In this document: piece after piece, positions 2,281 through 28,020 of the stretch
How the letters are laid out: each line of letters begins with the position of its first letter
Numbering within the stretch: the first letter of the stretch is position 1
Assembly (NCBI GenBank): GCA_035290745.1
Contig: DATDTS010000070.1
Location: 1 to 39,429, forward strand
DNA from: Candidatus Bilamarchaeaceae archaeon
GTDB taxonomy: Archaea; Micrarchaeota; Micrarchaeia; Anstonellales; Bilamarchaeaceae
Direction of reading: 5' to 3'
Length of the DNA stretch: 39,429 nt
Notes under the pieces: model-generated
Seen by the model: the letters and a program-made list of their open reading frames with translations, nothing else
What the model was told of the DNA's origin: nothing
Databases searched by the model: none
Translations under genes and position numbers: made by a program

Positions 2281-4218
2281 ATGAATTTAACTCAAAAAAT
2301 ATTAAAGGAACATTTGGTAGAAGGTGAAATGGTACAAGGAAAAGAAGTTGGAATAAAAATAGATCAAGTCCTAACCCAGGATGCAACTGGAACCATGGCC
2401 TTCTTGGAGTTTGAGGCACTAAATATGCCAAGCATACACGCAGAACTTGTAGTTAGTTATGTTGATCACAACATGCTTCAAACGGATTTCAAAAATCCAG
2501 ATGACCATATTTTCTTACAAACAGCAGCATCAAAATTTGGTGCATATTTTTCAAAACCAGGAAATGGTATTTGCCACCAAGTTCACCTAGAAAGATTTTC
2601 TGCTCCAGGTAAAACTCTTTTGGGAAGTGATTCACATACTCCAACCTGTGGAGGAATGTCTTCATTGGCAATTGGTGCTGGTGGATTAGATATTGCATTA
2701 GCAATGGGTGGTGGGGCTTATTATTTTCCAATGCCACAAATCATAGGTGTAAAACTAACTGGGAAATTATCTGATTGGGTTACAGCAAAAGATGTTATTC
2801 TTGAAATGAACAGGCGTGTAACTGTGAAAGGAGGAAAAGGAAAGATATTTGAATATTTTGGGCCTGGAGTTGCAACACTATCAGTTCCTGAAAGATCTAC
2901 AATAACTAATATGGGTGCTGAATTAGGTGCAACTACAAGTATTTTCCCATCAGATGAAATGACTTTAAAATATTTAAAAATGCAAGGAAGAGAAGAGGTC
3001 TATAAATCTCTCTCAGCGGATTCTGAAAGTGATTATGATTCCATAATTGAGATAAATTTAAGTGAACTTGAACCACTTATAGCAAAACCACACAGTCCTG
3101 ATAATGTTGTACCAATAAAAGAAGTTGCAGGAATAAAAGTTGATCAGGTTATAATTGGTTCATGTACTAACTCTTCTTTTCGTGATTTGATGTCCGTTGC
3201 TTCTATCCTCAAAGGTAAGAAAGTAGCTTCTGGAGTAAGTTTTGCTGTTGTTCCTGGTTCAAAACAAGTTTATGAGCAGATTGCAAGAAATGGTGCATTG
3301 GCTGATTTAATTGCAGCAGGTGCGAGAATTCTTGAAAGTGCTTGTGGCCCATGCATTGGTATGGGTCAAGTTCCTCGTTCTGGTGGAGTTTCAGTAAGAA
3401 GTTTTAACAGAAACTTTAAAGGTAGATGTGGTAGTACTGATGCAGGTGTTTACCTTTCAAGTCCAGAGGTTTGTGCAGCATGTGCACTTACTGGAGTGAT
3501 CACTGATCCAAGAGATCTTGGTGTATATACGGAAATTCAATGGCCTGCAAAACTAGAGATTGACGATTCTATGATTTTAAAACCTTCATCTGATCCAGAG
3601 AATGTTGAAATAATAAAAGGGCCAAATATAAAATCATTACCAGAAATGAAACCTCTTCAAAACACCATTAGCAAAGAAGTTTTGTTAAAAGTTGGGGATA
3701 ACATTACAACAGACCATATTATGCCAGCAGGTGCAGAGATTCTTCCATTGAGATCGAATATCCCCGAAATATCAAAATATACTTACAGGATTATTGATAA
3801 AGAATTTCCGCAAAGGTGTTTGGAAAAAGGAGGAGGGATTATAATTGGTGGAGAGAACTATGGCCAAGGATCGTCAAGAGAACATGCAGCAATTGCACCT
3901 CTTTATCTTGGTATTAGGGCAAAGATTGTCAAATCGTATGCAAGAATCCATCTTCAGAATTTGATTAATTGGGGCATTTTACCATTAGAATTCGTGAATC
4001 CTGTAGACTATGATAAAATTGATCAAGGCGATGAACTGGAATTAGTAGATATTTTAAATTCACTAAAGCATGGAAAGCCAGTTAAGGTGAAAAACGTAAC
4101 TAAAAACTACGAATTTGAAGCAAAGTATACGTTGTCAAAAAGGGATATTGATACTTTAATTGTTGGCGGGTCAATTAATTATGTGAAAACTATGCAAACT
4201 CAGAAGATCACAGCTTAA
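2281..4218 (+). CDS. acn: aconitate hydratase (aconitase family, single-chain 645 aa)
   Basis: Fe-S ligand and substrate motifs GSDSHTPTCGG, IGSCTNSS and CGPCIGMG. The swivel-domain end is present. AGGTGA lies 6 nt upstream of the ATG. Confidence 0.9.
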   Translation: MNLTQKILKEHLVEGEMVQGKEVGIKIDQVLTQDATGTMAFLEFEALNMPSIHAELVVSYVDHNMLQTDFKNPDDHIFLQTAASKFGAYFSKPGNGICHQVHLERFSAPGKTLLGSDSHTPTCGGMSSLAIGAGGLDIALAMGGGAYYFPMPQIIGVKLTGKLSDWVTAKDVILEMNRRVTVKGGKGKIFEYFGPGVATLSVPERSTITNMGAELGATTSIFPSDEMTLKYLKMQGREEVYKSLSADSESDYDSIIEINLSELEPLIAKPHSPDNVVPIKEVAGIKVDQVIIGSCTNSSFRDLMSVASILKGKKVASGVSFAVVPGSKQVYEQIARNGALADLIAAGARILESACGPCIGMGQVPRSGGVSVRSFNRNFKGRCGSTDAGVYLSSPEVCAACALTGVITDPRDLGVYTEIQWPAKLEIDDSMILKPSSDPENVEIIKGPNIKSLPEMKPLQNTISKEVLLKVGDNITTDHIMPAGAEILPLRSNIPEISKYTYRIIDKEFPQRCLEKGGGIIIGGENYGQGSSREHAAIAPLYLGIRAKIVKSYARIHLQNLINWGILPLEFVNPVDYDKIDQGDELELVDILNSLKHGKPVKVKNVTKNYEFEAKYTLSKRDIDTLIVGGSINYVKTMQTQKITA

Positions 4219-4245
4219 GATTTGTGACATACATTTAAATCTGAA

Positions 4246-4518
4246 TTGTCTCAAATAATTATCGTGCAACTCCGAAGGAGAACTTTACATACAAATCCCG
4301 AGCCACTGAAACCAAGGGTTGTTGATTTAGATAGAAAATACACACTTAGTGACGCATCTGAAATAACTGGTTTTTCAATAGACAAATTAAGAAGAAGATT
4401 AAGAAGTTATAAGGAAGCGTTTCGTGATCCTTTTATTGGACATCTTTTGATTGGTGGGGAAACGGTTTTTCGTATTTTAACCGGAATTGGAACAAAGTGG
4501 GAGGATAAATTTGATTAA
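4246..4518 (+). CDS. small hypothetical protein with a possible helix-turn-helix
   Basis: Track ORF with a non-ATG start (TTG at 4246 or GTG at 4264). The segment YTLSDASEITGFSIDKLRRRL resembles an excisionase/MerR-type HTH. No other support. Confidence 0.3.
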   Translation: MSQIIIVQLRRRTLHTNPEPLKPRVVDLDRKYTLSDASEITGFSIDKLRRRLRSYKEAFRDPFIGHLLIGGETVFRILTGIGTKWEDKFD

Positions 4519-4586
4519 TCCAACTTTACTATTATTCAAAAACATTCATTCTATCTTTTTAATCCTTTTCTTTGATTTTACTCATT

Positions 4587-5903
4587 ATGTTTAAAGTAGT
4601 TAAATTTGGGGGAAGTTCATTAGCATCTGCTGACCTATTCAAACAAGTTGCAGAAATCATTCAATCAGATAAAGACAGAAAAGTCGTTGTAGTTTCAGCA
4701 CCTGGAAGATCAAATCCAAACGATTCTAAAACAACTGACCTGCTAATTAAAATCTCTGAAAATGTTTTAAGTGGGAAGGCATATTCCAAAGAATTTGATG
4801 AAATTAAAGAGAGATTAATTAATTTGGAAAAAGAACTAGATCCTAAAACACCTGTTGCAAATTTAATGACGAGTGAACTTCAAAAAAGAATTAAGAAAAG
4901 GGAAAAAAACGCAATTATTGCATTAGGTGAAGAATTTTCAGCAAGGCTTTTAGCTGATTATCTGGAGGGTTCTGTTTATTTAGATCCAAAAGATGCTAAT
5001 TTTCTGATTGATGAAACCCCCTATGGGAAAAGATATGTACCAAAATCATCATTTTTCTCAATTAGACAGGTATTCAATAAATTAAAAGATAAAATAGTTA
5101 TTTTTCCTGGTTTTTTTGGAATTGATTCAAGGGGAAGAATAAGGGTACTTCAAAGGGGTGGAAGCGATTACACAGCATCAATCCTATCAGTTATTTTAAA
5201 TGCAGATTTACATGAGAATTTCACTGATGTTGATGGTATCTCAGTTGTTGAACCTGATATTCTGCCAGATACAGAGAAAATAAGATTTATGTCACTTTAT
5301 GAATTAAGCGAATTAACCTTAGATGGGTCTTTTGGTGTTTTTCAGGATTTTGCAGTTGCCCCTCTTGCGCGAAATAAAATTCAAATTCATGTTTTATCTA
5401 CAAAATTGCCAAAAGGTGAAGGGACAAGAATTGTTGAAACTTTACCTAATAATTTACCTAAAATAAGAGGAATTGCCTGTAAAAAAGACTTTGTAATATT
5501 TGATATTTTCAAATATGGTCTTGATCAGGAAATCGGCCTAAAACTAGAATTAGAAAAAATATTCGCAAATCACAAGCTCTCAGTTGGTCGTGTTCCAAGT
5601 TCTTTGAATTCAATGTCCATTATTCTGTCATGTAAATTGGATCTTTCAACCCTAAGTCAGGAAATAAAAGATGCAGTTAAACCAGATGAGCTAAGAGTTA
5701 TCAATGATGTTGCTTTGGTTTCAGTTGTAGGGGAGGAACTTGAAAAAACAAAAGGAGTTGGAATGAGAATCCTAAAATCAATTTCTGATCATGATATAAA
5801 CATTCTCAAGGCAATGTTTGATGGTATCAACTTCGTTTGTGTTATTCCAAATAATGAAGCAAAAAAAGCTGTAAAAGCAATTTATGAGGAGTTTTTTGCT
5901 TAG
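4587..5903 (+). CDS. aspartate kinase
   Basis: Amino-acid-kinase N-terminus VVKFGGSSLA and VVVVSAPGRSN..TTD. C-terminal ACT-like repeats (VALVSVVGEEL.., INFVCVIPNNEA). ATG at 4587 is preferred over the TTG at 4572 given in the track. Confidence 0.85.
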   Translation: MFKVVKFGGSSLASADLFKQVAEIIQSDKDRKVVVVSAPGRSNPNDSKTTDLLIKISENVLSGKAYSKEFDEIKERLINLEKELDPKTPVANLMTSELQKRIKKREKNAIIALGEEFSARLLADYLEGSVYLDPKDANFLIDETPYGKRYVPKSSFFSIRQVFNKLKDKIVIFPGFFGIDSRGRIRVLQRGGSDYTASILSVILNADLHENFTDVDGISVVEPDILPDTEKIRFMSLYELSELTLDGSFGVFQDFAVAPLARNKIQIHVLSTKLPKGEGTRIVETLPNNLPKIRGIACKKDFVIFDIFKYGLDQEIGLKLELEKIFANHKLSVGRVPSSLNSMSIILSCKLDLSTLSQEIKDAVKPDELRVINDVALVSVVGEELEKTKGVGMRILKSISDHDINILKAMFDGINFVCVIPNNEAKKAVKAIYEEFFA

Positions 5904-6019
5904 AATCTACATTCATCGTCTTTTATCGAACTAGGTTACGATCATATTTATAAATCTTATTAACACCATTTTCTATGCTTCTTTATATCCTAAATAATCT
6001 GTTAGATATGGTGATAAGT

Positions 6020-7234
6020 ATGTCTGAAAAAATATCTATGAAAGATGGCAAATTGCATGTGCCTGATATGCCAACTATTCCTTATATCTCTGGTGATGGG
6101 ATTGGTGTTGACATTTGGCCAGTTGTCCAAAAAATAGTAGATTCTGCTGTTCATAAAGCATATAAAGGAAAGAAAAAAATTAACTGGAAAAAGGTTTTAG
6201 CAGGGGATGAAGCAAATGAAAAGCTTGGTACCTTTTTGCCTGATGATACAATTAACTCAATTAAAGAGTATTTAGTTGCAATAAAAGGCCCTTTAACAAC
6301 TCCAGTAGGTGGCGGCCACAGATCCTTAAACGTGACTATGCGCCAAGTCTTGGACTTATACTGCTGTGTAAGGCCAGTTAGATGGTTCAATGGTGTTCCA
6401 AACCCAATGAAATCTCCTGAAAAACTTAATGTTGTAATATTCAGGGAAAATACAGAAGATGTTTATTCTGGTATTGAATTCAAGCAAGGAACAGAAGAAG
6501 CAAAAAAAGTTATTGATTTTATATCAGCTTTTGGCAAGAAAATAAGGCCTGATTCAGGTGTTGGAGTCAAACCAATTTCAATAACCGGAACTAAAAGATT
6601 AGTTGAAGCTGCAATTAATTATGCGATTAATAACAAGAAAAACATTGTCACTTTAGTTCACAAGGGAAATATCATGAAATTTACCGAAGGCTCATTTAGA
6701 GAATGGGGTTATGAAGTAGCTAAGGAAAAATTCGCTGATAAGATAATCACAGAACAAGAAGTCCTTGAGAAACATGAAGGTAAAATTCCACATGGAAAAA
6801 TAATGATAAACGATAGGATTGCAGATGCAATGTTCCAACAATTATTATTACGGCCAGATGAATACCAAGTAATTGCCACAATGAACCTTAATGGTGATTA
6901 TATAAGTGATGCATGTGCTGCACAGGTTGGTGGTTTGGGAATTGCACCAGGTGCAAATATAAACTACAAAACAGGACATGCATTATTTGAGGCAACTCAT
7001 GGAACTGCCCCAAAACATGCAGGTCAGGATAAAGTTAACCCAGGTTCATTACTTCTTTCAGCGGTTATGATGCTTGAATATTTAGGTTGGAAAGAAGCAG
7101 CACGAAGTGTTGAAAGTGCATTTGAGAAAACAATTGATAAAAAAATAGTAACCTACGATTTAGCAAGGCAAATGGAAGGTGCAAAAGAGGTAAAATGCTC
7201 AGAATTCGGTAATCATATCATCTCTAACCTGTGA
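6020..7234 (+). CDS. icd: isocitrate dehydrogenase (NADP-type, prokaryotic homodimeric family)
   Basis: Motifs [28 protein letters not shown] and [27 protein letters not shown]. The ATG at 6020 ([15 protein letters not shown]) fits the family N-terminus better than 5975. Confidence 0.9.
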
Positions 7235-7239
7235 GAAAA

Positions 7240-7482
7240 ATGGTAACTATTGATTTAGCTTTAACTGAAGCATGTCAAACTATAAAATCTATAGCACTTT
7301 TCTTTTTAGTTATCTTTCTTATTCAAACTTTTATAGTTTATATAGAGGGAAAAGAAAAAGCACACAAAAAATGGCTTCTGCCAGCGGCTGTTGTTTTTTT
7401 ACTTTTATTAGTTTACCTCTTTACACAAAATATACTGAATATGATTGCAGGAATTGTAAAATTAGAATTAGCTCAATGTTAA
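7240..7482 (+). CDS. small two-helix membrane protein, hypothetical
   Basis: Hydrophobic ORF between icd and aclB. ATG at 7240 lies inside the GTG-started track ORF. No homology recognised. Confidence 0.3.
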   Translation: MVTIDLALTEACQTIKSIALFFLVIFLIQTFIVYIEGKEKAHKKWLLPAAVVFLLLLVYLFTQNILNMIAGIVKLELAQC

Positions 7483-7492
7483 AGAAATTAAG

Positions 7493-8797
7493 GTGATACC
7501 TATTGCAAGAAGAAAAATAAGAGAAATTGATGGTCGAAATATGTTTGGTGGCTACTTTAATATTCCTCTAGATGGGGTTTTAGTTTCTCAAGAAACAGAT
7601 ATTGAGAACCTTCCTGCAAAATATTACTGGTTAAAATCTAAAAAACTTGTTGTTAAACCAGATATGCTAATAGGAAAAAAAGGAAAGAACAATCTAATCC
7701 TTCTAAATGCTGATTTTTCTCAAGCAAAAAAATTCATTAAAGAAAACATGAATAAGCAAATCACAATTGGTAAAGTAACTGGTAACTTAACGCATTTCAT
7801 AATCCAGCCATTTGTTCCTCATGAGGAAGAATACTTTGTTTCAATTATGAGTGGTAGGGATTCAGACACAATCTACTTTTCTGATAAGGGGGGCGTAGAT
7901 GTAGAAGAAAATTGGGATAAAATAAAAAGCATTTCAGTTCCAATCCTAGGTGAGTTTCCTGAAGTTGAGCTAAAAAGCACTCTCACATCATTTCCAAAGA
8001 ATCATCAAAAACAATTATTTGATTTTATAAAAAGGCTTCACATGTTTTTTGTTGATTATGATTTCTCATACCTTGAATTAAATCCTTTCTCTTTTGTTAA
8101 AAACCTTCCATTACCTCTTGGGTTTGTTGGAGAATTAGATGATTGTGCAGAATACAAGAATTGTAAAAAATGGGGAGATCTAAAATTCCCTCAGAGTTTT
8201 GGGAAAACTCTAACAAAAGAAGAGAATTTCATAAAAGACCTTGACTCAAAAACAGGCGCTTCCCTAAAATTAACTATTCTAAATCCAAATGGGAAGGTTT
8301 GGCCAATGGTTGCTGGCGGTGGAGCATCTGTAATCTACGCTGACACGATAGTTGACCTTGGTTTCAGTAATGAGCTTGCTATTTATGGAGAATACTCCGG
8401 AGACCCTAATGAAGAAGAAACCTATCAATATGCAACAACAATACTTGATCTTATGACAAGAGAAAAAAGAAAAGATGGCAAAATTCTTATAATTGGGGGA
8501 GGAATTGCAAATTTTACTGATGTTGCTAAAACTTTTCAGGGGATTGTAAGAGCATTACGTGATTATAAGGAAAAACTACAGAAAAATAATGTAAAAATAT
8601 ATGTAAGACGTGGAGGCCCGAATTATGAGATTGGTCTTAATCTTATGAAAAAACTCGGAAATGAATTAGGTGTTCCTATGGAAGTATACGGTCCTGAGAC
8701 TCATATGACAAAAATAGTTTCGCTTGCTTTGATGGAATCAGGAATTCAATCAAAAGGGAACGGTAAATCGGTTCTCTCCTTGAATCGTCAAAGGTGA
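7493..8797 (+). CDS. aclB: ATP-citrate lyase, small (SCS-beta-like, ATP-grasp) subunit
   Basis: ATP-grasp and succinyl-CoA-synthetase-beta-like sequence. The N-terminus IARRKIREIDG resembles ACL N-termini as I recall them. Placed directly upstream of aclA with a 4-nt gap. The start is non-ATG (GTG at 7493) and uncertain by a few codons. Confidence 0.8.
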   Translation: MIPIARRKIREIDGRNMFGGYFNIPLDGVLVSQETDIENLPAKYYWLKSKKLVVKPDMLIGKKGKNNLILLNADFSQAKKFIKENMNKQITIGKVTGNLTHFIIQPFVPHEEEYFVSIMSGRDSDTIYFSDKGGVDVEENWDKIKSISVPILGEFPEVELKSTLTSFPKNHQKQLFDFIKRLHMFFVDYDFSYLELNPFSFVKNLPLPLGFVGELDDCAEYKNCKKWGDLKFPQSFGKTLTKEENFIKDLDSKTGASLKLTILNPNGKVWPMVAGGGASVIYADTIVDLGFSNELAIYGEYSGDPNEEETYQYATTILDLMTREKRKDGKILIIGGGIANFTDVAKTFQGIVRALRDYKEKLQKNNVKIYVRRGGPNYEIGLNLMKKLGNELGVPMEVYGPETHMTKIVSLALMESGIQSKGNGKSVLSLNRQR

Positions 8798-8801
8798 TAT
8801 T

Positions 8802-10622
8802 ATGAAAGATTTATTTACAGATAAAACTCAGTGTTTCATATACAATCTAAAACCAATTCCAATTCAACGAATGCTTGATTTTGATTATCTTTGCAGGAGA
8901 ACAACACCAAGTGTAGTAGCTGTTATTGCACCAGGTAAAGCAGGCTCTCTCAAAGCTTTTTTTGGTGCAAAAGAAATATTAATTCCAGTTTATGATAGCA
9001 TAAAAGAAGCTGTAAAACTAAATCCTTCTGTTGATGTTTTTGTAAATTTTGCATCTTTTAGAAGTGCTTATGACTCTTCTTTGGAGGCACTTGAGTCCGA
9101 TTCGATCAAAACTGTTGCAATTATTGCTGAAGGAATTCCAGAAAGACTAACCAAACAGCTTATAGCAGTTGCAAAGAAAAAGAACAAATGTATTATAGGC
9201 CCTGCAAGTGTTGGTGGGTTATCAGCAGGTAAATTTAGAATAGGAAATACTGCTGGAACAATAGAAAATATAATCGCATGCAAGCTTTATCGGCCAGGCT
9301 CAGTTGGTTTTGTATCAAAATCCGGAGGCCTTTCAAATGAAATGTTTAATGTTATCTCAAGAAATGCTGATGGAATTTACGAAGGAATTGCAATTGGTGG
9401 GGATGCATATCCTGGTTCAAGATTAATAGATCACATCTTACGATTTGAGAAAATTCCAGATATAAAAATGATTGTTGCACTTGGAGAAGTTGGAGGTACC
9501 GAGGAATATGAAATTACAGATGCACTGAAAACTAACAAAATTACTAAACCAGTTGTGATGTGGGTTACTGGAACCTGTGCAAAAGTTTTCCCTGGAGAAG
9601 TCCAATTTGGGCATGCTGGTGCAAAAACCGGCGATGAGAAGGGCTCTGCTGATGCAAAGAACTCTGCCCTAAGAGAAGCAGGAGTTATCGTTCCAGATTC
9701 TTATCAGGATTTTGATGTCAAAATAAAACATACTTTTGATTCTTTGAAAAAACAAGGAAAAATAAAAGAAATCAAAGAACCCGGATTTCCAGAAATGCCT
9801 TTGGAATATACAGTTGCATTAAAGCAGGGTAAGATAAGAAAAGCAACAAACTTTATATGTACAACCTCTGATGATCGCGGTGATGAGCCACATTATGCCG
9901 GAATTCCTATGACTAAAATGATTGAGGAGAATTATTCATTAGGAGATGTTATTTCACTTTTATGGTTTAGAAAAAGACTTCCGTCATATGCAAGTAAATT
10001 TATTGAAACTGTTCTATTGATAGTAGCTGATCATGGCCCATGTGTAAGTGGTGCACATAATGCTATTGTCTCATCAAGAGCTGGAAAAGATCTTGTTTCT
10101 TCTCTTTGTTCTGGTTTATTAACCATTGGTCCAAGATTTGGTGGAGCAATTGATGATTCTGCGCGGTTCTTTAAACATGCTTGTGATTCAAAAACCCAAC
10201 CAGACGAATTTGTTGAAGACATGAAGAAAAAAGGGATCAACATTCCTGGAATTGGCCATAGAATCAAATCAGCAAAGAACCCTGACAAAAGAGTTGAGAT
10301 ACTTAAAAATTATGCAAAAAAGCATTTTCCACATACAAAATATTTGGATTATGCTCTTTTAGTTGAAAATGAAACACTAAAGAAAGGTGACAACCTTATA
10401 TTAAATGTCGATGGCACCATTGCAGTTTTATTTTTGGATTTGATTGATGGATGTAAGATTTTTTCAAATGAAGAATTTGACTCTATTGTTGATGTTGGCT
10501 ATTTAAATGGGTTATTTGTTCTGGCTCGTTCAATTGGTATCATGGGCCATGTTTTTGACCAAAAGAGGCTGAAACAACCATTGTACAGGCATCCATGGGA
10601 CGATGTATTATTTTTAGAGTAG
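8802..10622 (+). CDS. aclA: ATP-citrate lyase, large (SCS-alpha-like plus citrate-synthase-like) subunit
   Basis: CoA-binding/SCS-alpha part with phosphohistidine loop VQFGHAGAKTG. C-terminal citrate-synthase-like domain ending LYRHPWDDVLFLE. AAAGGTGAT lies before the ATG. Confidence 0.9.
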   Translation: MKDLFTDKTQCFIYNLKPIPIQRMLDFDYLCRRTTPSVVAVIAPGKAGSLKAFFGAKEILIPVYDSIKEAVKLNPSVDVFVNFASFRSAYDSSLEALESDSIKTVAIIAEGIPERLTKQLIAVAKKKNKCIIGPASVGGLSAGKFRIGNTAGTIENIIACKLYRPGSVGFVSKSGGLSNEMFNVISRNADGIYEGIAIGGDAYPGSRLIDHILRFEKIPDIKMIVALGEVGGTEEYEITDALKTNKITKPVVMWVTGTCAKVFPGEVQFGHAGAKTGDEKGSADAKNSALREAGVIVPDSYQDFDVKIKHTFDSLKKQGKIKEIKEPGFPEMPLEYTVALKQGKIRKATNFICTTSDDRGDEPHYAGIPMTKMIEENYSLGDVISLLWFRKRLPSYASKFIETVLLIVADHGPCVSGAHNAIVSSRAGKDLVSSLCSGLLTIGPRFGGAIDDSARFFKHACDSKTQPDEFVEDMKKKGINIPGIGHRIKSAKNPDKRVEILKNYAKKHFPHTKYLDYALLVENETLKKGDNLILNVDGTIAVLFLDLIDGCKIFSNEEFDSIVDVGYLNGLFVLARSIGIMGHVFDQKRLKQPLYRHPWDDVLFLE

Positions 10623-15276: not shown

Positions 15277-16110
15277 ATGCCCTTGGACGGATTTTTAATA
15301 ATCGACAAACCCCCTAAGGTTATTTCGCATGAACTTACTACCTGGTTAAAAAAATTATTGAAAGTTAAAACGGGTCATGCTGGAACTCTTGATCCGGATG
15401 TTACTGGTGTTTTCCCGGTTGCATTAGGCAAATCGACAAAACTTCTCCAATATATTTCTTCGAATGATAAGACCTATATCGGAATTATAAAATTCAAGAA
15501 TAAACAAATCGATGATTCTGAAATTAAAAATCTATTTAGTGAGTTTACTGGGAAAATTTGGCAGGTTCCACCTACAATGAGTGCAGTAAAAAAAGTTAAG
15601 CGAAAAAGAACTGTTTATTCGCTCGATTTTCTTGAAAGAGACGGACCATTTGTTTTATTTAAAACTAAAGTTGAAGCTGGGACTTATATTCGAACCTTAT
15701 GCGAAGATATTGGAAAAAAATGTGGAGGAGCTAGAATGGAGGAACTAAGAAGAATTGCTGTTGGTGATATAAATGAAAAACAAGCAATAAAACTCCACAA
15801 ACTTGTTGATTTTTGTAAATCAGGTAAACTACAAGAGATAATCATCCCACCAGATTCTCTTATAAAATTTCCTAAAGTTGAGATAAATAAGCACACGATC
15901 GAACCTCTTCTAAATGGTGCTACTATAACTAAATATGGAATAGTGAAGTGTGAACGTTTTGGAGTTGAAGAACTAGTTTCAGTTTATTACAACAATACAT
16001 TTGTTGGAGTTGGGTTATCCTTAGTAAGATCAAAAGAAATAGACACAATGAAAAGTGGTTTTGTAATTAAAATGAAAAGAACACATGCTACTAAATCTCA
16101 ACTACTTTAA
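15277..16110 (+). CDS. cbf5: tRNA/rRNA pseudouridine synthase Cbf5/TruB with C-terminal PUA-like domain
   Basis: Catalytic motif GHAGTLDPDVTGVFPV. Also QVPP..SAVK and GTYIRTLCEDIG. Confidence 0.85.
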   Translation: MPLDGFLIIDKPPKVISHELTTWLKKLLKVKTGHAGTLDPDVTGVFPVALGKSTKLLQYISSNDKTYIGIIKFKNKQIDDSEIKNLFSEFTGKIWQVPPTMSAVKKVKRKRTVYSLDFLERDGPFVLFKTKVEAGTYIRTLCEDIGKKCGGARMEELRRIAVGDINEKQAIKLHKLVDFCKSGKLQEIIIPPDSLIKFPKVEINKHTIEPLLNGATITKYGIVKCERFGVEELVSVYYNNTFVGVGLSLVRSKEIDTMKSGFVIKMKRTHATKSQLL

Positions 16111-17251
16111 TTTTTTCCAGAGTTTTTCTAACAACCTCTTCAATACCTATTCTTTCTTCAATCATTTTTATTTGTTCTAATCTAGCTTTGGTAGCTGGGT
16201 GTTTTACTGCAACTAATGAGCAACAATCCTTGTATTCTTCAATTGAAGCGTCGAATGTCCCTACTTTTTGTGCCAGTTCCATAATTTCTTGTTTGTCATA
16301 AGTTGCAAGTGGCCGGTATACTGGTACACTGAAAGCCTCATCAACACAATATAAATTTTCTAAAGTTTGTGATGCAACTTGTGCAATACTATCACCCGTA
16401 ACAACCCCTAGCGCCCCTTCTTCTTTACATAACTTATTTGCAACATTTGCTATAAATCTTCTAAACAAAACAAGTTCAAGTTTAGGTGGGACTTCGAATG
16501 TTTTTTCTTGAAAATCCTGATAGGATACAATATATAAACTGATTTTGTAAGGATGAAATTCTTTCAATATTTTTATTAATTTAACTATTTTTGAATTCAA
16601 AACATCATCATTTCTTGGATAATTATGTATATGTAAAAAATTTACCTCGCACCCTCTTTTCATCATAAGCCAACTTGAAACTGGAGAGTCTATCCCTCCG
16701 GAAAATAAAGATAAAATCTTACCGCTTGATTTTACCGGCATTCCACCAAGGCCTTTTATTTTTTCAAATGAAACTATTATTTTATCATTTAATATCTCTA
16801 CAAATATCTTTTTTTCAGGTTTTTTTAAATCTATTTCGATTCCGTTTGCTTCAAGCTCCTTACCTATTTTTTTATTTACATCAAGCGAGGTTGCTTGAAA
16901 CTTTTTGTCCGATCTCTTAGTATCAATTTTAACTTTTTTGCCATTCAAATGTTCTTTTGCATAATCCAAAATAAGCTTTGTCACCTTTTCTAAATCTTTT
17001 TCAATTACATAAGCAAAAGAGAACCAGCTAATACCAAAAACCTTATTTAGCTTTTTTTCTATCTCTTCCTTATTGCTTTTTTCATTTAAGTAAATAATTA
17101 TTCTTGTTTCTTTTCTTTCTATTTTCTCGTATTCTATTCCATCTAAAGCCGTTTCTATATTATACTTTAACCTATTCTCAAAACTAGCCTTATTCTTTCC
17201 TTTTAATGACAATTCTCCATAATGTACGTTAAATATTTCCATAATAATCAA
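16091..17251 (-). CDS. thiI: tRNA 4-thiouridine synthase ThiI (THUMP plus PP-loop ATPase)
   Basis: PP-loop SGGIDSPV with an N-terminal THUMP-like region. ATGs at 17251 and 17242 are both possible. The 3' end overlaps cbf5 convergently by 20 nt. Confidence 0.85.
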   Translation of the reverse strand: MIIMEIFNVHYGELSLKGKNKASFENRLKYNIETALDGIEYEKIERKETRIIIYLNEKSNKEEIEKKLNKVFGISWFSFAYVIEKDLEKVTKLILDYAKEHLNGKKVKIDTKRSDKKFQATSLDVNKKIGKELEANGIEIDLKKPEKKIFVEILNDKIIVSFEKIKGLGGMPVKSSGKILSLFSGGIDSPVSSWLMMKRGCEVNFLHIHNYPRNDDVLNSKIVKLIKILKEFHPYKISLYIVSYQDFQEKTFEVPPKLELVLFRRFIANVANKLCKEEGALGVVTGDSIAQVASQTLENLYCVDEAFSVPVYRPLATYDKQEIMELAQKVGTFDASIEEYKDCCSLVAVKHPATKARLEQIKMIEERIGIEEVVRKTLEKIKVVEI

Positions 17252-17891: not shown

Positions 17892-19130
17892 ATGTCTGAT
17901 TTAAAAAAAACTGATGAAGCAATTTATAAACTGGTTCAGGATGAGTTACATTACGAACAAAAAACACTAAGGCTAATCCCATCTGAGAACTATGCATCAA
18001 AAGCAGTCTTAGAAGCTACAGGTTCTGTTTTTGCTAATAAATACGCAGAAGGTTACCCTCATAAAAGATACTATGCAGGACAAAAATATATTGATATGGT
18101 TGAAGATCTGGCAATTGAAAGAGCAAAAAAATTATTTGGGGTGAAATTTGCAAATGTTCAGCTAAATTCCGGTTCTCCTGGAAATATGGCAGTGTATTAT
18201 TCACTTATGAATCATGGAGATACATTCATGGGTTTGGAATTATCTCATGGTGGCCATATAACCCATGGTTTGAAAATTAATTTCTCCGGAAGTGAATATA
18301 ATGCGGTTTCTTACCAGCTTAACAAAAAAACCGAGAAATTAGATTTTGATGAAATCCGGAAACTTGCTGAGCAACATAAACCAAAATTAATTGTTTGTGG
18401 TTATACTGCTTACCCATATCAAGTTGATTTTAAACAATTTAGAGAGATTTGTGACGAGATTGGAGCTTATTTACTTGCAGATATTTCACATATTGCAGGT
18501 TTGATTGTTGGTGGGGTCCATCCATCACCAGTTGGAGTTGCAGATGTAATTATGACTACTACTCATAAAACATTAAGAGGCCCTAGAGGAGCCGTAATAC
18601 TAACAAATAATGAAGAAATTGCTACTAAAATAGATAAAGCAGTTTTTCCTGGGTTACAGGGTGGTCCACATATCCATTCAATTGCTGCAAAGGCGGTTTG
18701 TTTTCATGAAGCAATGCAGCCAGAATTCAAGAATTACACTCATCAAATTGTAAAAAATGCAAAAGCATTGGCTCATCACCTTTCTTCTTTAGGTTTGAGA
18801 TTAGTTGGAGGGGGAACCGAAACTCACCTAATTTTGGTTGATGTAATGTCCTCAAAAAATATTACAGGGAAAAAAGCTCATGAAGCATTAGAAGAAGCTG
18901 GAATTATTGTTAATAAAAATACCATTCCATACGACACTCAAAAACCGTTTATTGGTTCAGGAATAAGAATCGGAACTCCTTCTCTTACCACGCGTGGAAT
19001 GAAGGAAACTGAGATGAAACTTGTTGCAGAACTAATGGTAAGAGTTCTTGATAATGTTGATGATGCTAAATTAAAGGAAGAGGTAAGAAAAGAAGTTGAA
19101 GAGTTATGTTCAAAGTTTCCAATTTACTAG
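17892..19130 (+). CDS. glyA: serine hydroxymethyltransferase
   Basis: Motifs LIPSENYAS and TTTHKTLRGPRG (PLP lysine). The ATG at 17892 (MSDLKKTDEAI..) fits the family N-terminus. The track start at 17868 is possible. Confidence 0.9.
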   Translation: MSDLKKTDEAIYKLVQDELHYEQKTLRLIPSENYASKAVLEATGSVFANKYAEGYPHKRYYAGQKYIDMVEDLAIERAKKLFGVKFANVQLNSGSPGNMAVYYSLMNHGDTFMGLELSHGGHITHGLKINFSGSEYNAVSYQLNKKTEKLDFDEIRKLAEQHKPKLIVCGYTAYPYQVDFKQFREICDEIGAYLLADISHIAGLIVGGVHPSPVGVADVIMTTTHKTLRGPRGAVILTNNEEIATKIDKAVFPGLQGGPHIHSIAAKAVCFHEAMQPEFKNYTHQIVKNAKALAHHLSSLGLRLVGGGTETHLILVDVMSSKNITGKKAHEALEEAGIIVNKNTIPYDTQKPFIGSGIRIGTPSLTTRGMKETEMKLVAELMVRVLDNVDDAKLKEEVRKEVEELCSKFPIY

Positions 19131-20030
19131 TATATCAACTATCTCTTCTCTAGTTTTAGCTGAACAAACCTTATCTCTTAATTTTCTGGCACCTTGAATT
19201 CCTTTAATAAATTGGAGTGCTTGGCCTTTTATATCTCCTGAATTCCTTCTGATGTTCTTTTCATCAACGATTTTTATATAATCTTGAAATGCCTTGATTC
19301 TCATTTCTGGTGTAATCTCAAAATCATTCTCTTTTTTGCATTGTGAAAAAACAAATGGATTTCCAAGTGCACCTCTACCAATTAGAACAGCATCACATTT
19401 TGTATACTCAAACATTTTCTTGGCACTAGAATAATTAACAACGTCCCCATTTCCAAACAAAGGGATTGAGATTGCCTGTTTTATCTCTTTTATCTTGTCC
19501 CAATCCGCTTGACCCGCATACCCTTGTCTTAAGGTCCGTGCATGTACCGCAAGTGCTTTTACACCTGTTTTTTCAATGACTTTTGCAATCTCTACAGCGT
19601 TTTCTTTTGTCGATGTTCCCAATCTCATTTTTGCGGTTACCGGTTTTTTTATAGTTGAGACCAACTCCTCAAGAATCTCCTTAATTGTTTGAGGATTATC
19701 TAAAAGTGCTGCACCACCACATTTTTTTGTTATTTTTGGGGCAGGGCAACCAAAATTAACATCTATGACATCTGCCTTTTTCTCTAATTTTTGGGCAGCC
19801 TTTACCATTACTTCAGGATATGGCCCAAAAATCTGGATTGCACATGGCCTTTCTTCTTCTGAAATGAAAGTCATTTCTTCGGTTTTCCAGTTATCCCTAA
19901 CTACTGCTTCAGCTGAAACAAATTCTGTGACAACATAATCTGCCCCATACCTCTTGCATAATAATCTAAAGGCAGCATCAGTAAAACTAGCCATTGGAGA
20001 TAGTATATACCTTATATTGGAAAAATCCAT
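19110..20030 (-). CDS. dus: tRNA-dihydrouridine synthase (Dus family, FMN TIM barrel)
   Basis: Motifs ILSPMASFTD, IDVNFGCPAPKI, AVHARTLRQGY and NGDV. Convergent 21-nt overlap with glyA. Confidence 0.8.
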   Translation of the reverse strand: MDFSNIRYILSPMASFTDAAFRLLCKRYGADYVVTEFVSAEAVVRDNWKTEEMTFISEEERPCAIQIFGPYPEVMVKAAQKLEKKADVIDVNFGCPAPKITKKCGGAALLDNPQTIKEILEELVSTIKKPVTAKMRLGTSTKENAVEIAKVIEKTGVKALAVHARTLRQGYAGQADWDKIKEIKQAISIPLFGNGDVVNYSSAKKMFEYTKCDAVLIGRGALGNPFVFSQCKKENDFEITPEMRIKAFQDYIKIVDEKNIRRNSGDIKGQALQFIKGIQGARKLRDKVCSAKTREEIVDILVNWKL

Positions 20031-24376: not shown

Positions 24377-24488
24377 CGCCCCCACTGGGATTTGAACCCA
24401 GCTTCCAAGATCCGCAATCTTGTGTTCTTTCTGTTTTTCAAGCCTTTAAAATCATAAACTTGGAATATCCAGGCTATACTATGGGGGC
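24377..24488 (-). tRNA. tRNA-Arg(GCG) with a roughly 41-nt insertion at a non-canonical site (between positions 26/27 and 30/31)
   Basis: Minus strand. Acceptor GCCCCCA pairs with UGGGGGC, followed by discriminator G. D arm GUAU-AGCCUGG-AUAU. Intact anticodon arm CAAGA-UUGCGGA-UCUUG with U33 and G37. T arm CUGGG-UUCAAAU-CCCAG. The 41 nt between the D arm and the anticodon arm must be removed to give a 71-nt tRNA. Confidence 0.7.
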
Positions 24489-24623
24489 ATTGCATTACCA
24501 TAAAATTAGAATATTTAATAAATTAAATCTTTACTACCCAAATAACACAAGAAAGCCAACTAGTGACACCACAAGATCTCTCTTGGTTTGACGTTACTAA
24601 AATTTCTTTCCTCTGAGGAAAGG

Positions 24624-25020: not shown

Positions 25021-25656
25021 ATGGGATTACCAAAGAAAAGAGAGAAAAAAGAAAAAGAAACAAAAAAGAAAGCAGACAAAAAGAAAAAAGATGAAACAAC
25101 AACTGGTTTTAAAGGAATTGTTAGAATCGCAGGCAAAGATATGAAAGGTGAAGTCCTGCTCAAGAAAGCTGTTTTACGTATAGCTGGTGTTGGTGCTACG
25201 CTTGGTGCTTCAGTTATTAGGGTACTCTCAAGTGAACTTTCTATTCCAGGAACTACTCAAGTTGGTAATCTAAGCGATGATCAAATATCAAAAATTGATA
25301 ATGTTCTCTTTAATCTACATGATCATAATGTCCCTAAATTTTTGTTAAATAGACAAAAAGACAAACTAGGAGGAAAAGACATTCATGCTGTTATGAATGA
25401 TCTTGATTTTGTATTTAGACAAGATATAGAAAGTGAGAAGAAGCTATTTACTTGGAAAGGGTATAGGCATGCTTTTGGTCAGAAAGTTCGTGGTCAAAGA
25501 ACAAGGAATACAGGAAGAAGGGGCATGGCAGTTGGTGTATTAAGAAAAACAATACAAGCAGCAGCCGCAGCAGCTAAAGCAACAGACCAAAAACCAGGAG
25601 CAGCAAAAGAAACAGCAGCACCAAAAGCCGATGAGCCTTCTGCTAAGAAAAAGTGA
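25021..25656 (+). CDS. rps13: 30S ribosomal protein S13 (uS13) with Lys-rich N-terminal and Ala/Lys-rich C-terminal extensions
   Basis: Core sequence FKGIVRIAGKDMKG.., GYRHAFGQKVRGQRTRNTGRRG. The extensions are MGLPKKREKKEKETKKKADKKKKDE and AAAAAAKATDQKPGAAKETAAPKADEPSAKKK. Confidence 0.9.
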   Translation: MGLPKKREKKEKETKKKADKKKKDETTTGFKGIVRIAGKDMKGEVLLKKAVLRIAGVGATLGASVIRVLSSELSIPGTTQVGNLSDDQISKIDNVLFNLHDHNVPKFLLNRQKDKLGGKDIHAVMNDLDFVFRQDIESEKKLFTWKGYRHAFGQKVRGQRTRNTGRRGMAVGVLRKTIQAAAAAAKATDQKPGAAKETAAPKADEPSAKKK

Positions 25657-25667
25657 GGTAATTTATT

Positions 25668-26261
25668 ATGGGAGATCCACCAAAACTAAGAAACAAGTAT
25701 TCTCGTCCGCAGCGATTATGGGATGTTGACAGACTCAAAAATGAAAAAGGACTTAAGCGCGAATTTGGTCTTAAAAATATGCGAGAGTTGTGGATGACTG
25801 AAACACAATTAAAAAAATATAGAAGAGAAGCTAGAAGATTATTAGCTCTTACACAAGAGGAGCGGGAAAATAGTGAACAAAAAGTACTATCAAAGCTTGT
25901 TAAATTAGGCGTGCTGAAGGATGGTGCTTCACTTGATGATGTGCTATCATTATCTGTACGCGATTTTCTTGAAAGACGGCTTCAAACTATTGTTAAAAGG
26001 AAGGACATGGCAAGAACAATGGTGCAAAGTAGGCAACTTATTACTCATGGTTTCATTTCAGTGAACGATCAAAGAGTTTCAGTACCAAGTTATCTTGTTG
26101 ATGCAAAAACGGAAGGATCAATTTCCTATGCAAAAAAAATAGATATTGAGCCTCCAACAGCTCCTCAAGATGAAAAGAAAGCAGAATCTACCTCTAACGA
26201 ATCTAAAGAAAATAAACCTGATACTAATGAACCAGGTGAAAATGAAAAACAGGTGGAATAA
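25668..26261 (+). CDS. rps4: 30S ribosomal protein S4 (uS4) with acidic/Lys-rich C-terminal tail
   Basis: [19 protein letters not shown] at the N-terminus. S4 RNA-binding domain ([28 protein letters not shown]). Confidence 0.9.
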
Positions 26262-26708: not shown

Positions 26709-27284
26709 ATGGATGTAACCATTGAGAAAGAGCATGAAAAGAAATTTGAGTTTGTTTTAGAAGGAGTGTCTCATGCTTTTGCAAATGCTATTAGAAGATA
26801 TGCTATGAATCGCGTTCCTATTATGGCTATTGATAAGGTTCTTTTCTATGATAACACATCTTCAATCTTTGATGAGTATATTGCTCATAGGATTGGACTA
26901 ATCCCTCTAAAAACACCAAGTAAATTAAGTGAAAACGCTGAAGTAACTCTATCATTGGATCAAACTGGTCCTAAAATGGTATATTCAGGTGATTTTAAGA
27001 GTTCTGATTCGCAAATTGTTCCAGCTATTGATGCCATTCCAGTATTTACCTTATTAGACGGACAAAGATTAGTACTAGAAGGAAAAGCAGTTGTTGGACT
27101 TGGTAATCGACATGCAAAATTCCAATCTGGTATTGTTGCTTATAAGTTTGATAAAGATAAATTTCATTTTAAGGTAGAAGGAATTTATCATATGCCAGTT
27201 AGAGAAATAATCATTAGAGCATGTAATGAGTTCGAAAATGATTTAGATAACCTTTCTAAACTTCTAAAGAAAAAGGCAAAATAA
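26709..27284 (+). CDS. rpoD: DNA-directed RNA polymerase subunit D (Rpo3), short form
   Basis: Motifs FANAIRRYAMNRVP and DEYIAHRIGLIPL. Conserved position after rps11. Confidence 0.85.
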   Translation: MDVTIEKEHEKKFEFVLEGVSHAFANAIRRYAMNRVPIMAIDKVLFYDNTSSIFDEYIAHRIGLIPLKTPSKLSENAEVTLSLDQTGPKMVYSGDFKSSDSQIVPAIDAIPVFTLLDGQRLVLEGKAVVGLGNRHAKFQSGIVAYKFDKDKFHFKVEGIYHMPVREIIIRACNEFENDLDNLSKLLKKKAK

Positions 27285-27296
27285 TTGTGTGATTAC

Positions 27297-27304
27297 TTTA
27301 TATA
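27297..27304 (+). promoter_or_regulatory. TATA-box-like TTTATATA upstream of the tRNA-Leu leader module
   Basis: TTTATATA lies 27-34 nt upstream of the first G of the minihelix at 27331. That spacing is the usual archaeal TATA-to-start distance. Confidence 0.4.
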
Positions 27305-27330
27305 TTCTTTTTATTGTGTATTATCTTTAT

Positions 27331-27369
27331 GCAGGGATCTTATTGAACATTTTGTTCAATTCTCCCAGC
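27331..27369 (+). other. 39-nt leader minihelix copying the acceptor strands of the downstream tRNA
   Basis: Reads GCAGGGA-TCTT-ATTGAAC-ATTTT-GTTCAAT-TC-TCCCAGC. An 11-nt spacer AGTTCATTCAT (27370-27380) follows, then tRNA position 1 at 27381. Confidence 0.6.
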
Positions 27370-27380
27370 AGTTCATTCAT

Positions 27381-27709
27381 GCAGGGATGACGGAGCGGTC
27401 AAAAGCTTTTTGGCTACTTATAAACATTTGCCAAAAACCTTGGAAAAAGGCATATTGCAATTCTTTAGTGTGGCTGTCCAAACGTGCTAGGTTGAGGTTC
27501 TTTTGGATTAGCAAGTCCGTTTTTGGACTCGCTTTTCCTAAAAAGCGAGAGCCTAGTGGCTTAGTGCTTGCGAGAAACTTTTGACTTCGGTCATTCATAC
27601 GCCAAAAGTTTCATCAAAAGGCGTAATGTTCGCATAAGTTCGAACCTTCGCCAACTTTGTTGGTGAATTTTTAACGAAGCACAGCGAAGTTAAAACCTCT
27701 CTCCCTGCA
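27381..27709 (+). tRNA. interrupted class II tRNA gene, best reading tRNA-Leu(GAG), 329-nt locus with three long insertions
   Basis: The acceptor stem GCAGGGA pairs 7/7 with TCCCTGC (27702-27708), with discriminator A at 27709. The 5' end GCAGGGATGACGGAGCGGTCAAA has a Leu/Ser-type D loop. D stem ACG closes with CGT only after skipping 79 nt (27404-27482). The anticodon arm is CTAGG-TTGAGG(T) at 27487-27498, closing with CCTAG at 27552-27556 after about 53 nt. The anticodon GAG is at 27494-27496. The long variable arm is TGGCTTAGTGCTTGC. T stem GAGA(27572-27575)+G(27689) pairs with CTCTC after about 113 nt. Predicted mature length is 84 nt. The T loop TTAAAAC is atypical (A at position 56), so the 3' part is the weakest. 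Confidence 0.55.
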
Positions 27710-27732
27710 TTTATTTTTAAGCCCAAAATCTG

Positions 27733-28020
27733 TCAAAAAAATTTGAGGGCATGTGACACAAAAAAAGCAATGATTGCCATTGTTGATATTGCCAAGACTG
27801 GAATAAGAAATTTTTCCTGCTTTTTTATCTCTATTTTTGGGCCAAATAATGAGATTACTATAAATAATCCGATTGAAATAATCCCCTTTCCGAGCCAGTG
27901 ATGCCAAAAATTATTGGCTAACCAATCTTTTGCTGGTTTGTATAATTCAGCAAATATCGTTATTGTTGCAATGAAGACAATTACCAATAATGTTGCTAGA
28001 AACACAGATTCAATTTTCAT
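27733..28020 (-). CDS. small three-helix membrane protein, hypothetical
   Basis: Strongly hydrophobic 95-aa ORF. Its ATG overlaps the stop of the upstream gene (ATGA). Preferred over the overlapping 27671..27907 ORF. Confidence 0.45.
   Translation of the reverse strand: MKIESVFLATLLVIVFIATITIFAELYKPAKDWLANNFWHHWLGKGIISIGLFIVISLFGPKIEIKKQEKFLIPVLAISTMAIIAFFVSHALKFF

Follow-up and report, generated by a model that had tools for sequence, protein, structure and literature searches.

A tRNA-Leu(GAG) gene of a Micrarchaeota archaeon very probably interrupted by four bulge-helix-bulge introns, two of them from one structured intron family

Archaeal tRNA introns are usually short, with a median length of 12–25 nucleotides (nt) in a range of 11–129 nt (PMC4090602), and three introns per gene is the stated maximum (PMC4033280, PMC8450103). 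Within the phylum Micrarchaeota, 56% of the tRNA genes of ARMAN-2/Micrarchaeum are disrupted; its tRNA-Cys and tRNA-Pro have introns at position 59/60, and in its tRNA-Pro(GGG) a tiny exon separates an intron at 53/54 from the one at 59/60 (PMC3239211). The Micrarchaeum epsilon2 splicing endonuclease has broad specificity and cleaves relaxed motifs of the bulge-helix-bulge (BHB) type in vitro (PMC3239211, PMC12397907); its only documented occurrences are in ARMAN-1, ARMAN-2 and Mancarchaeum (PMC5829648). The Thermoproteales (Pyrobaculum, Thermofilum, Caldivirga) are reported to possess multiple-intron tRNA genes and to have undergone "large-scale tRNA intron transposition" (Sugahara 2008 and Fujishima 2010, as related in PMC4033280). 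The nuclear tRNA genes of Cyanidioschyzon merolae contain up to three ectopic BHB introns, whose removal proceeds in order as judged by reverse transcription polymerase chain reaction (PMC3728597), and the euryarchaeal tRNA-Trp intron carries a box C/D guide RNA (PMC4090602). Here we describe a tRNA-Leu(GAG) gene on a 39,429-nt stretch of DNA (contig DATDTS010000070.1, hereafter the window) from an archaeon of the Micrarchaeota (DPANN). We consider it very likely that this is a single syntenic gene interrupted by four BHB introns, all of which would be spliced out of its transcript.

Compared with these systems, the locus is nearest to ARMAN-2, with which it shares the phylum, multiple non-canonical introns with BHB or relaxed BHB motifs, a tiny T-arm exon between two introns and the use of position 59/60. 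It differs in that the window, with a G+C content (GC) of ~34%, comes from a different Micrarchaeota lineage, and in that a single gene holds four introns of 51–79 nt, whereas the ARMAN-2 introns tested in vitro measure 13–25 nt. Such lengths exceed the usual archaeal median yet fall inside the published range (PMC4090602), so that the insertions are less extreme than an earlier note on this DNA had supposed in placing them at the upper end of known lengths. As in the Thermoproteales, to the extent that the account cited above describes them, BHB introns occupy many non-canonical positions and similar intron sequences recur across tRNAs and positions; unlike here, three introns per gene is the stated maximum for that group (PMC4033280, PMC8450103), which belongs to a different archaeal superphylum. 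C. merolae likewise combines D-arm, 37/38 and T-loop introns within a single gene, but it is a eukaryote (a red alga), stops at three and has unrelated intron sequences. With the euryarchaeal tRNA-Trp intron the present introns share length and sequence conservation, the latter suggesting a role for the excised RNA; they differ in that no C or D box occurs anywhere in 27381–27709, on which ground a guide RNA in an intron was rejected, and in that the intron family described below is found at several positions and in several tRNAs, while the tRNA-Trp intron keeps one fixed site. The four-intron gene is an extreme case of an established kind, with no new mechanism and with a number of introns above the published maximum that we found. 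A literature search for four-intron tRNAs or Micrarchaeota tRNA introns returned no counter-example to the three-intron maximum.

The gene spans 329 nt of the plus strand (27381–27709), directly downstream of the S13-S4-S11-rpoD genes and inside an intergenic space of 448 nt 3′ of rpoD (Table 1). The nearest named homologs of RpoD all belong to Candidatus Micrarchaeota/Micrarchaeia. Seven assemblies, independent of one another and drawn from different samples, agree exactly in the tRNA sequence, the sole intergenic variant being position 27371 in the leader, and the locus is therefore not an assembly artefact. On the unspliced window, ARAGORN called no tRNA and Rfam recognized no family at its gathering thresholds, with nothing meaningful at E <= 10 over 27100–28000, where the weak matches (RsaE, VqmR, snoRNA-like, that is, resembling small nucleolar RNA) are chance. 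This silence is expected, because the gene is so heavily interrupted. The 329-nt RNA has a minimum free energy (MFE) of -113.6 kcal/mol against -84.8 +/- 5.0 for shuffled sequences (z = -5.7; 0/100 shuffles as stable), and both the acceptor and the anticodon stem are present in that fold. The open reading frames (ORFs) overlapping the locus, which the earlier note had dismissed as artefacts, are indeed such: gene callers placed none there in 6/7 assemblies, and the single call is a minus-strand ORF of 73 amino acids (aa) in locus L007, without a Pfam match.

Table 1. Features of the window and of related loci (positions refer to the window unless a locus is named)
Feature	Position	Strand	Description
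Exon 1	27381-27402	+	Acceptor 5′ strand, D-stem 5′ strand, D loop to GGUCAA; tRNA positions 1 to ~21; matches L011 3673-3756
Intron 1	27403-27481	+	79 nt; D loop, ~21/22; family A
Exon 2	27482-27497	+	A22, D-stem 3′ strand, anticodon-stem 5′ strand, anticodon loop through G37; anticodon GAG
Intron 2	27498-27550	+	53 nt; canonical position 37/38
Exon 3	27551-27574	+	G38, anticodon-stem 3′ strand, long variable arm, T-stem G49 A50 G51
Intron 3	27575-27636	+	62 nt; within T stem at 51/52; short family-A intron
Exon 4	27637-27644	+	8-nt micro-exon AGTTCGAA (RNA AGUUCGAA); positions 52-59, last two T-stem bases and T loop U54-A59
Intron 4	27645-27695	+	51 nt; T loop at 59/60
Exon 5	27696-27709	+	C60, T-stem 3′ strand CUCUC, acceptor 3′ strand UCCCUGC, A73; CCA not encoded
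TATA-box-like element	27296-27303	+	TTTATATA, just after rpoD stop codon; presumed promoter
Leader minihelix	27331-27369	+	GCAGGGA copy of acceptor 5′ strand, hairpin UUGAAC-AUUUU-GUUCAA, then UCCCAGC
T-rich tract	27710-27718	+	TTTATTTTT, directly after A73; likely terminator
S13	at 25021		
S4	at 25668		
S11	at 26261		
RpoD	26709-27284		
tRNA-Arg(GCG)	~24379-24489	-	Second interrupted tRNA; D-loop insertion of 36-40 nt at ~24428-24467
TruB/Cbf5-type pseudouridine synthase	15277-16110		With PUA domain
ThiI	16091-17251	-	
Dihydrouridine synthase	19110-20030	-	
Second intron family	L023 3847-3888		tRNA-Leu(GAG), 42 nt
Second intron family	L027 3925-3966		tRNA-Leu(GAG), 42 nt
Second intron family	L063 3737-3778		tRNA-Leu(GAG), 42 nt
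Second intron family	L050 3799-3840		tRNA-Leu(GAG), 42 nt

The five exons total 84 nt and the four introns account for 245 of the 329 nt. GCAGGGA at 27381–27387 and UCCCUGC at 27702–27708 form an acceptor stem of 7 base pairs (bp), with the discriminator A73 at 27709, and ARAGORN calls the joined exons tRNA-Leu(gag) with the T arm GAGAG-UUCGAAC-CUCUC. Apart from the acceptor stem and A73, the spliced product has a 3-bp D stem, the D-loop GG, G37 and a long variable arm; every stem and conserved base is intact, with none of the broken stems or lost bases that mark a tRNA pseudogene. Much of this had been recognized earlier from the letters of the DNA: a tRNA-Leu(GAG) gene with multiple non-canonical introns, its acceptor stem, A73, Leu-type D arm, CUAGG/CCUAG anticodon stem with GAG and long variable arm have all held up, the exons matching intron-free orthologs. 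So have the helices listed within the insertions, namely TTTTTGGC (27407) with GCCAAAAA (27430), CTCGCTTTT (27528) with AAAAGCGAG (27541), GAAACTTTTG (27574) with CAAAAGTTTC (27603) enclosing GACTTCGGTC (27583), and TTTTAAC (27669) with GTTAAAA (27689). The count and placement of the insertions fared less uniformly. Those in the D loop and the anticodon loop were right within the ambiguity left by repeated bases and have acceptable BHB motifs, while the third, a 113-nt segment (27576–27688), turns out to be two introns flanking the true micro-exon and lacks a motif at its own junctions.

The exon map rests on orthology. A survey of relatives at one genome per species gave 80 Micrarchaeota rpoD loci, and across these and some further related loci an intron-free tRNA-Leu(GAG) is called by ARAGORN shortly after rpoD in 43. 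One of them is L011 (GCA_043827025.1), whose RpoD is 63% identical and whose uninterrupted 84-nt tRNA-Leu(GAG) (3673–3756) sits at the same site after rpoD. The joined exons of the window differ from it at 6 positions; four of these lie in stems and each keeps its pair (A7-U for G7.U, A10-U for G10.U, one variable-arm pair, and G49-C65 for G49.U65). Another intron-free copy follows rpoD in L014 (959–1042). Other relatives carry one, two or three introns in this gene by spliced alignment, and L013 has an interrupted tRNA-Leu(GAG) with three. Intron-free orthologs share the T-loop core TTC(G/A)AA with C56. It is this T arm that the micro-exon AGTTCGAA restores: the same GAGAG and UUCGAAC are present in L011 and L013, with the T-stem 3′ strand reading CUCUU in the former and CUCUC in the latter. 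In 15 loci (L018, L021, L026, L030, L031, L035, L037, L043, L047, L051, L053, L057, L060, L064, L083) tRNA-Leu(GAG) was not reconstructed within 1.3 kb after rpoD; there the gene has either been relocated or is interrupted past detection by spliced alignment.

Each intron position also has precedent among these relatives. A D-loop intron at the site of intron 1 recurs in L013, L033, L034, L049 and L063, with a central helix of 4/4 pairs in L013, L033, L049 and L063. The central-helix pattern of intron 2 at 37/38 (three pairs followed by a mismatch) is found again in L013, L023, L027, L032, L058, L071, L082 and L087, and its 3′ hairpin CGCUUUUCCUAAAAAGCG is similar to the introns that L058 and L033 carry at 37/38. 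The third intron of L013 lies at the orthologous 51/52 site, has the central helix UACG/CGUG (4/4) and is followed directly by AGTTCGAACCTCTC; introns at 59/60, in the same register and the same tRNA, occur in L056 and L067.

A strict de novo BHB scan of the region (4/4 central pairs, flanks of at least 2 bp) was too noisy in AT-rich sequence to locate junctions; the junctions were therefore fixed by orthology, and the BHB register was then tested at those positions. In the register applied, the last six exon bases consist of four central-helix and two bulge bases, as do the last six intron bases. This rule agrees with the published placement of the first two anticodon bases within the central 4-bp helix (PMC4090602) and recovers the expected pattern in the 37/38 introns of >15 relatives. 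To pass, a junction needed at least 3/4 central pairs and a flanking helix no shorter than 3 bp. The four junctions defined by orthology all pass, and neither version of the 113-nt insertion does; random junction pairs pass at rates of 2.7% in real sequence and 1.8% in shuffles. With 1–5 equivalent cut positions per junction taken into account, our own arithmetic puts the chance of four passes together at ~2e-5. The spacing of a 4-nt helix and a 3-nt bulge (7+7) is kept in the correct register at all four junctions, which are relaxed BHB forms.

Individually, intron 1 has three central pairs (GGUC/GUCC, 3/4), AA^A as both bulges, no outer pairs and a 4-bp inner helix AGCU/GGCU, and its 3′ bulge is directly adjoined by the 3′ strand of the D stem. 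Its cut slides within an AAAA run with the product unchanged, and a second register, 27400/27480 (GCGG/CUGU), is possible. In intron 2 the anticodon stem serves as the outer helix (7 pairs) to a central helix UUGA/GCGA (3/4) with bulges GG^U and GA^G, and the inner side has one pair, or 6/8 if mismatches are allowed. Intron 3 shows a complete central helix UGCG/CGCA (4/4), bulges AG^A and UA^A, one outer pair and the inner helix AAC/GUU (3 pairs). Intron 4, assessed after removal of intron 3, combines a central UUCG/UUAA (3/4) and AA^C as both bulges with a 6-bp inner helix CUUCGC/GCGAAG and the 5-bp T stem as outer helix. Once intron 3 is taken out, the T-arm region adopts the BHB frame unforced, with a 7x7 internal loop between the T stem and the 6-bp helix.

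By likeness to documented archaeal tRNA splicing, processing would involve cleavage at eight bulge sites followed by ligation. Transcription from the TATA-like element just downstream of rpoD would yield a precursor of ~380 nt, in which exon and intron bases at each junction would fold into a 4-bp helix between two 3-nt bulges. The archaeal tRNA splicing endonuclease would then cleave each strand just after its second bulge base, presumably in a broad-specificity form such as epsilon2, and a ligase of the RtcB type would join the five exons, the 8-nt AGUUCGAA included, into an 84-nt class II tRNA. The outer helix of intron 4 is the T stem, which becomes continuous only after the loss of intron 3; intron 3 therefore probably leaves ahead of intron 4 or along with it. 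The predicted mature tRNA would contain GAGAGUUCGAACCUCUC and read ...GCGAGAGUUCGAACCUCUC....

Several points weigh against this interpretation. The central helices are only 3/4 paired in three of the four introns; intron 1 has no adjacent outer helix, 4 nt lying between the motif and the D stem on the 5′ side, and the outer pair of intron 3 is a single U.G. Relaxed motifs at non-canonical sites therefore call for a broad-specificity endonuclease, and Pfam scans of 30 ORFs in the window found no EndA or RtcB domain. Enforcing all four BHBs gives -77.4 kcal/mol against the MFE of -113.6, a cost of ~36 kcal/mol, and in the MFE structure of intron 4 by itself two hairpins compete with the inner helix. 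We treat the folding cost as uninformative for motifs that a protein recognizes, and it fits a stepwise, protein-assisted order of splicing, yet it is a caveat. A second, intact tRNA-Leu(GAG) could lie elsewhere in the genome, of which 39 kb are visible here, and the three-intron maximum derives from statements in papers of 2014 and 2021 and not from a current survey of tRNA databases.

The competing explanations bear on different parts of this evidence. The earlier assignment of three introns, the third taking up all of 27576–27688, is very improbable in our judgment. Removal of those three segments does leave 84 nt that ARAGORN accepts as tRNA-Leu(gag), and the stretch GUUAAAACC at 27689–27697 mimics a T loop and adjoins the T-stem 3′ strand; the product would instead read ...GAGAGUUAAAACCUCUC..., with the T loop UUAAAAC and A at position 56. 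That product would lose the C56 and R57 kept by the intron-free orthologs, and its junctions offer 0–1/4 central-helix pairs and no flanking helices. The 113 nt moreover include a perfect AGTTCGAA with good BHB registers on both sides, their first 62 nt form a complete family-A intron ending at 27636/27637 that is recognized independently, and in L013 an intron at the same 51/52 site leads directly into AGTTCGAACCTCTC. The T loop that seemed atypical did so because the third insertion had been misread; it is the canonical UUCGAAC, as in relatives. A different micro-exon candidate, GTTCG at 27628–27632, came from dynamic-programming spliced alignment and was rejected on the BHB register, the covariance-model match and L013, all of which point to the exon at 27637–27644.

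That the locus is a decaying pseudogene, left unspliced after its function passed to another copy, is somewhat less remote, though still unlikely. Extreme interruption (245/329 nt of intron), relaxed motifs and a view of only 39 kb of genome would suit such a history; set against them are the intact cloverleaf bases of all exons, the pair-preserving character of the stem differences from L011, a BHB register kept at 4/4 junctions, a conserved single syntenic site and identity across 7 assemblies. Related genomes have 1–3 introns in the orthologous gene, and interruption is therefore normal in this lineage. Least credible of all, to the point of being nearly negligible, is the notion that the insertions are other elements (group I/II introns or DNA like miniature inverted-repeat transposable elements) or that the locus encodes another RNA such as signal recognition particle RNA or RNase P RNA. 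Its attractions are a long (329 nt) and strongly structured RNA and the reported occurrence of group I introns in archaea (PMC6125680). No Rfam family, catalytic introns included, matches the segments even at E <= 10. Self-splicing introns are far longer than 51–79 nt, the segments falling short of the hundreds of nt typical of group I/II introns. The exons also rebuild an ortholog-identical tRNA, and genes for tRNA-Thr and tRNA-Arg hold the same family-A element at 37/38, in BHB register. A tRNA-Leu(GAG) gene with four BHB introns accordingly remains the preferred interpretation.

Introns 1 and 3 are members of a conserved, structured intron family, here called family A, with the layout AAGCUUUUUGGCU, loop, GCCAAAAACCUUGGAAAAAGGCAU, hairpin and then GGCU over ~65–80 nt. 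Intron 1 is homologous to the 37/38 intron of L013 (local alignment score 56 vs a null mean of 14, z = 16, 0/300 shuffles). A covariance model was built from seven copies including intron 1 and searched on 517 kb of loci; intron 1, as a seed member, scores 74.6 bits, and intron 3, which was not in the seed, is matched at 27574–27637 with 37.1 bits (E = 4e-5 over 517 kb). This match therefore places the end of intron 3, on independent grounds, at 27636 and not at 27688. The base of its stem shows compensatory changes (GAAAC/GUUUC vs AAG/CUU). Family-wide, scores run from 37 to 83 bits, and across 12 copies pairing in the main hairpin reaches 97.5%, with 4/10 of its pairs covarying and beating shuffle and slide controls; the host genomes span 34% to 57% GC. 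A metagenome scan with the 19-base intron 1 motif CCAAAAACNTTGGAAAAAGG returned 24 loci, among which only L100 and L114 hold real copies, the remainder looking like chance or coding matches. The family has no Rfam match, its degenerate pattern was unmatched in viral contigs, so that a viral origin was rejected, and the literature searched holds no description of its sequence that we found.

Besides the D loop and position 51/52 in the tRNA-Leu of the window, family A is present in the tRNA-Leu of relatives at 37/38 (the second introns of L013 and L023) and in the D loop (L033 and L049), in tRNA-Arg(GCG) at 37/38 (L018) and at 59/60 (L028 and L081), and in tRNA-Thr(GGU) at 37/38 (L114, a 57%-GC contig assigned to Micrarchaeota by EF-1alpha). 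Homologous introns thus stand at differing positions in differing tRNA genes, which is the mark of a mobile tRNA intron family as described for Thermoproteales; occurrence at several positions in tRNA-Leu, tRNA-Arg and tRNA-Thr therefore implies intron mobility, that is, movement of family A between positions and tRNA genes within Micrarchaeota. A stronger proposal is that family A is an actively mobile, sequence-conserved RNA element inserting in tRNA genes wherever a BHB can form, its sequence perhaps conserved by a function of the excised RNA or the precursor; we put this forward tentatively, and rather more doubt than belief attaches to it. Such an RNA, probably circular once excised, might bind a protein, or it might promote its own spread through reverse splicing. 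If family A is mobile in this sense, the present gene, with two copies and two other introns, would be more heavily colonised than any other tRNA gene on record.

Some further features of these elements were noted. In L100 (1059–1139; Ga0209343_10061751, 38% GC) an ORF is closely followed by a family-A copy that scores 81 bits; no tRNA exons are recognisable around this copy, and a partial tandem repeat of its own 3′ half follows. This copy is either inside a tRNA too disrupted to recognize or free-standing. For the 5′ GCUUUUU of family A there are two possible partners, GCCAAAAA, as in the modelled hairpin, and, farther downstream, AAAAAGGC (27405–27411, 27432–27436 and 27443–27450 in the window); copies that start with AGGCUUUUU have a downstream AAAAAGCCC, the alternative pairing also seems to covary, and family A may have a two-state structure. 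A second shared intron family of 42 nt (GCATGACA.CGCCG....GGCGATGGAA.GCGG) is shared by the tRNA-Leu(GAG) genes of four genomes, three of which carry it in the variable-arm region and one in the D loop.

A gene that breaks up an 84-nt RNA by four introns and leaves one exon of 8 nt tests the limits of the endonuclease-ligase pathway and implies an order of splicing. The same gene with 0, 1, 2, 3 or 4 introns, together with family A at four positions in three tRNAs, provides a comparative system for the gain and loss of non-canonical tRNA introns, a subject studied until now chiefly in Thermoproteales. There is also a practical consequence: ARAGORN and Rfam miss both this tRNA-Leu(GAG) and a second interrupted tRNA in the window, tRNA-Arg(GCG), and automatically annotated Micrarchaeota genomes therefore appear to be without essential tRNAs. 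That tRNAs are missed in DPANN was already suspected by Kaneta et al. 2018 (PMC5829648).

The tRNA-Arg(GCG) gene was delimited against its intron-free ortholog in L011 (541–614, minus strand). Removal of the 36–40 nt of its D-loop insertion leads ARAGORN to a tRNA-Arg(gcg) call, and 3/4 central pairs form in the best registers. In L018 the orthologous tRNA-Arg(GCG) gene carries a family-A intron at 37/38, and in L028 and L081 it carries two introns, one at 37/38 and one at 59/60.

Around the tRNA-Leu(GAG) gene, sequence resemblance makes TTTATATA the presumed promoter of the transcript, and a similar motif, TTTTATATTCTTT, directly follows the rpoD stop in L011 and L014; at the other end, TTTATTTTT is likely an archaeal oligo-T terminator, and in L013 a T run likewise follows the tRNA-Leu(GAG) gene. 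The leader minihelix folds at -15.7 kcal/mol (z = -3.9), and the upstream leader of L013 (1676–1712) contains a like-built minihelix (z = -3.1), with hairpins of 6–8 bp. The leader UCCCAGC is near-complementary to the upstream GCAGGGA, which could pair with the 3′ acceptor strand of the tRNA. In L014 a duplication of ~45 nt, comprising leader and tRNA bases 1–13, flanks a GACUUCGGUC hairpin. The sequence ATGCAGGGAT is repeated at 27329 and 27379; a fifth intron between the repeats was considered and rejected, its sole BHB-like register using bases upstream of the likely transcription start and leaving the product unchanged.

Farther along the window, weak Rfam matches of the box C/D snoRNA type at 27893–27938 on the plus strand (SNORD24, 20.4 bits; snoR117, 17.6 bits; E ~1) surround AGCCAGUGAUGCC...GGCU within a 95-aa ORF on the minus strand (27733–28020) and are probably chance. 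Three tRNA-modification genes lie within 12 kb of tRNA-Leu, and ATP-citrate lyase subunits, aconitase and isocitrate dehydrogenase are encoded at 2281–10622.

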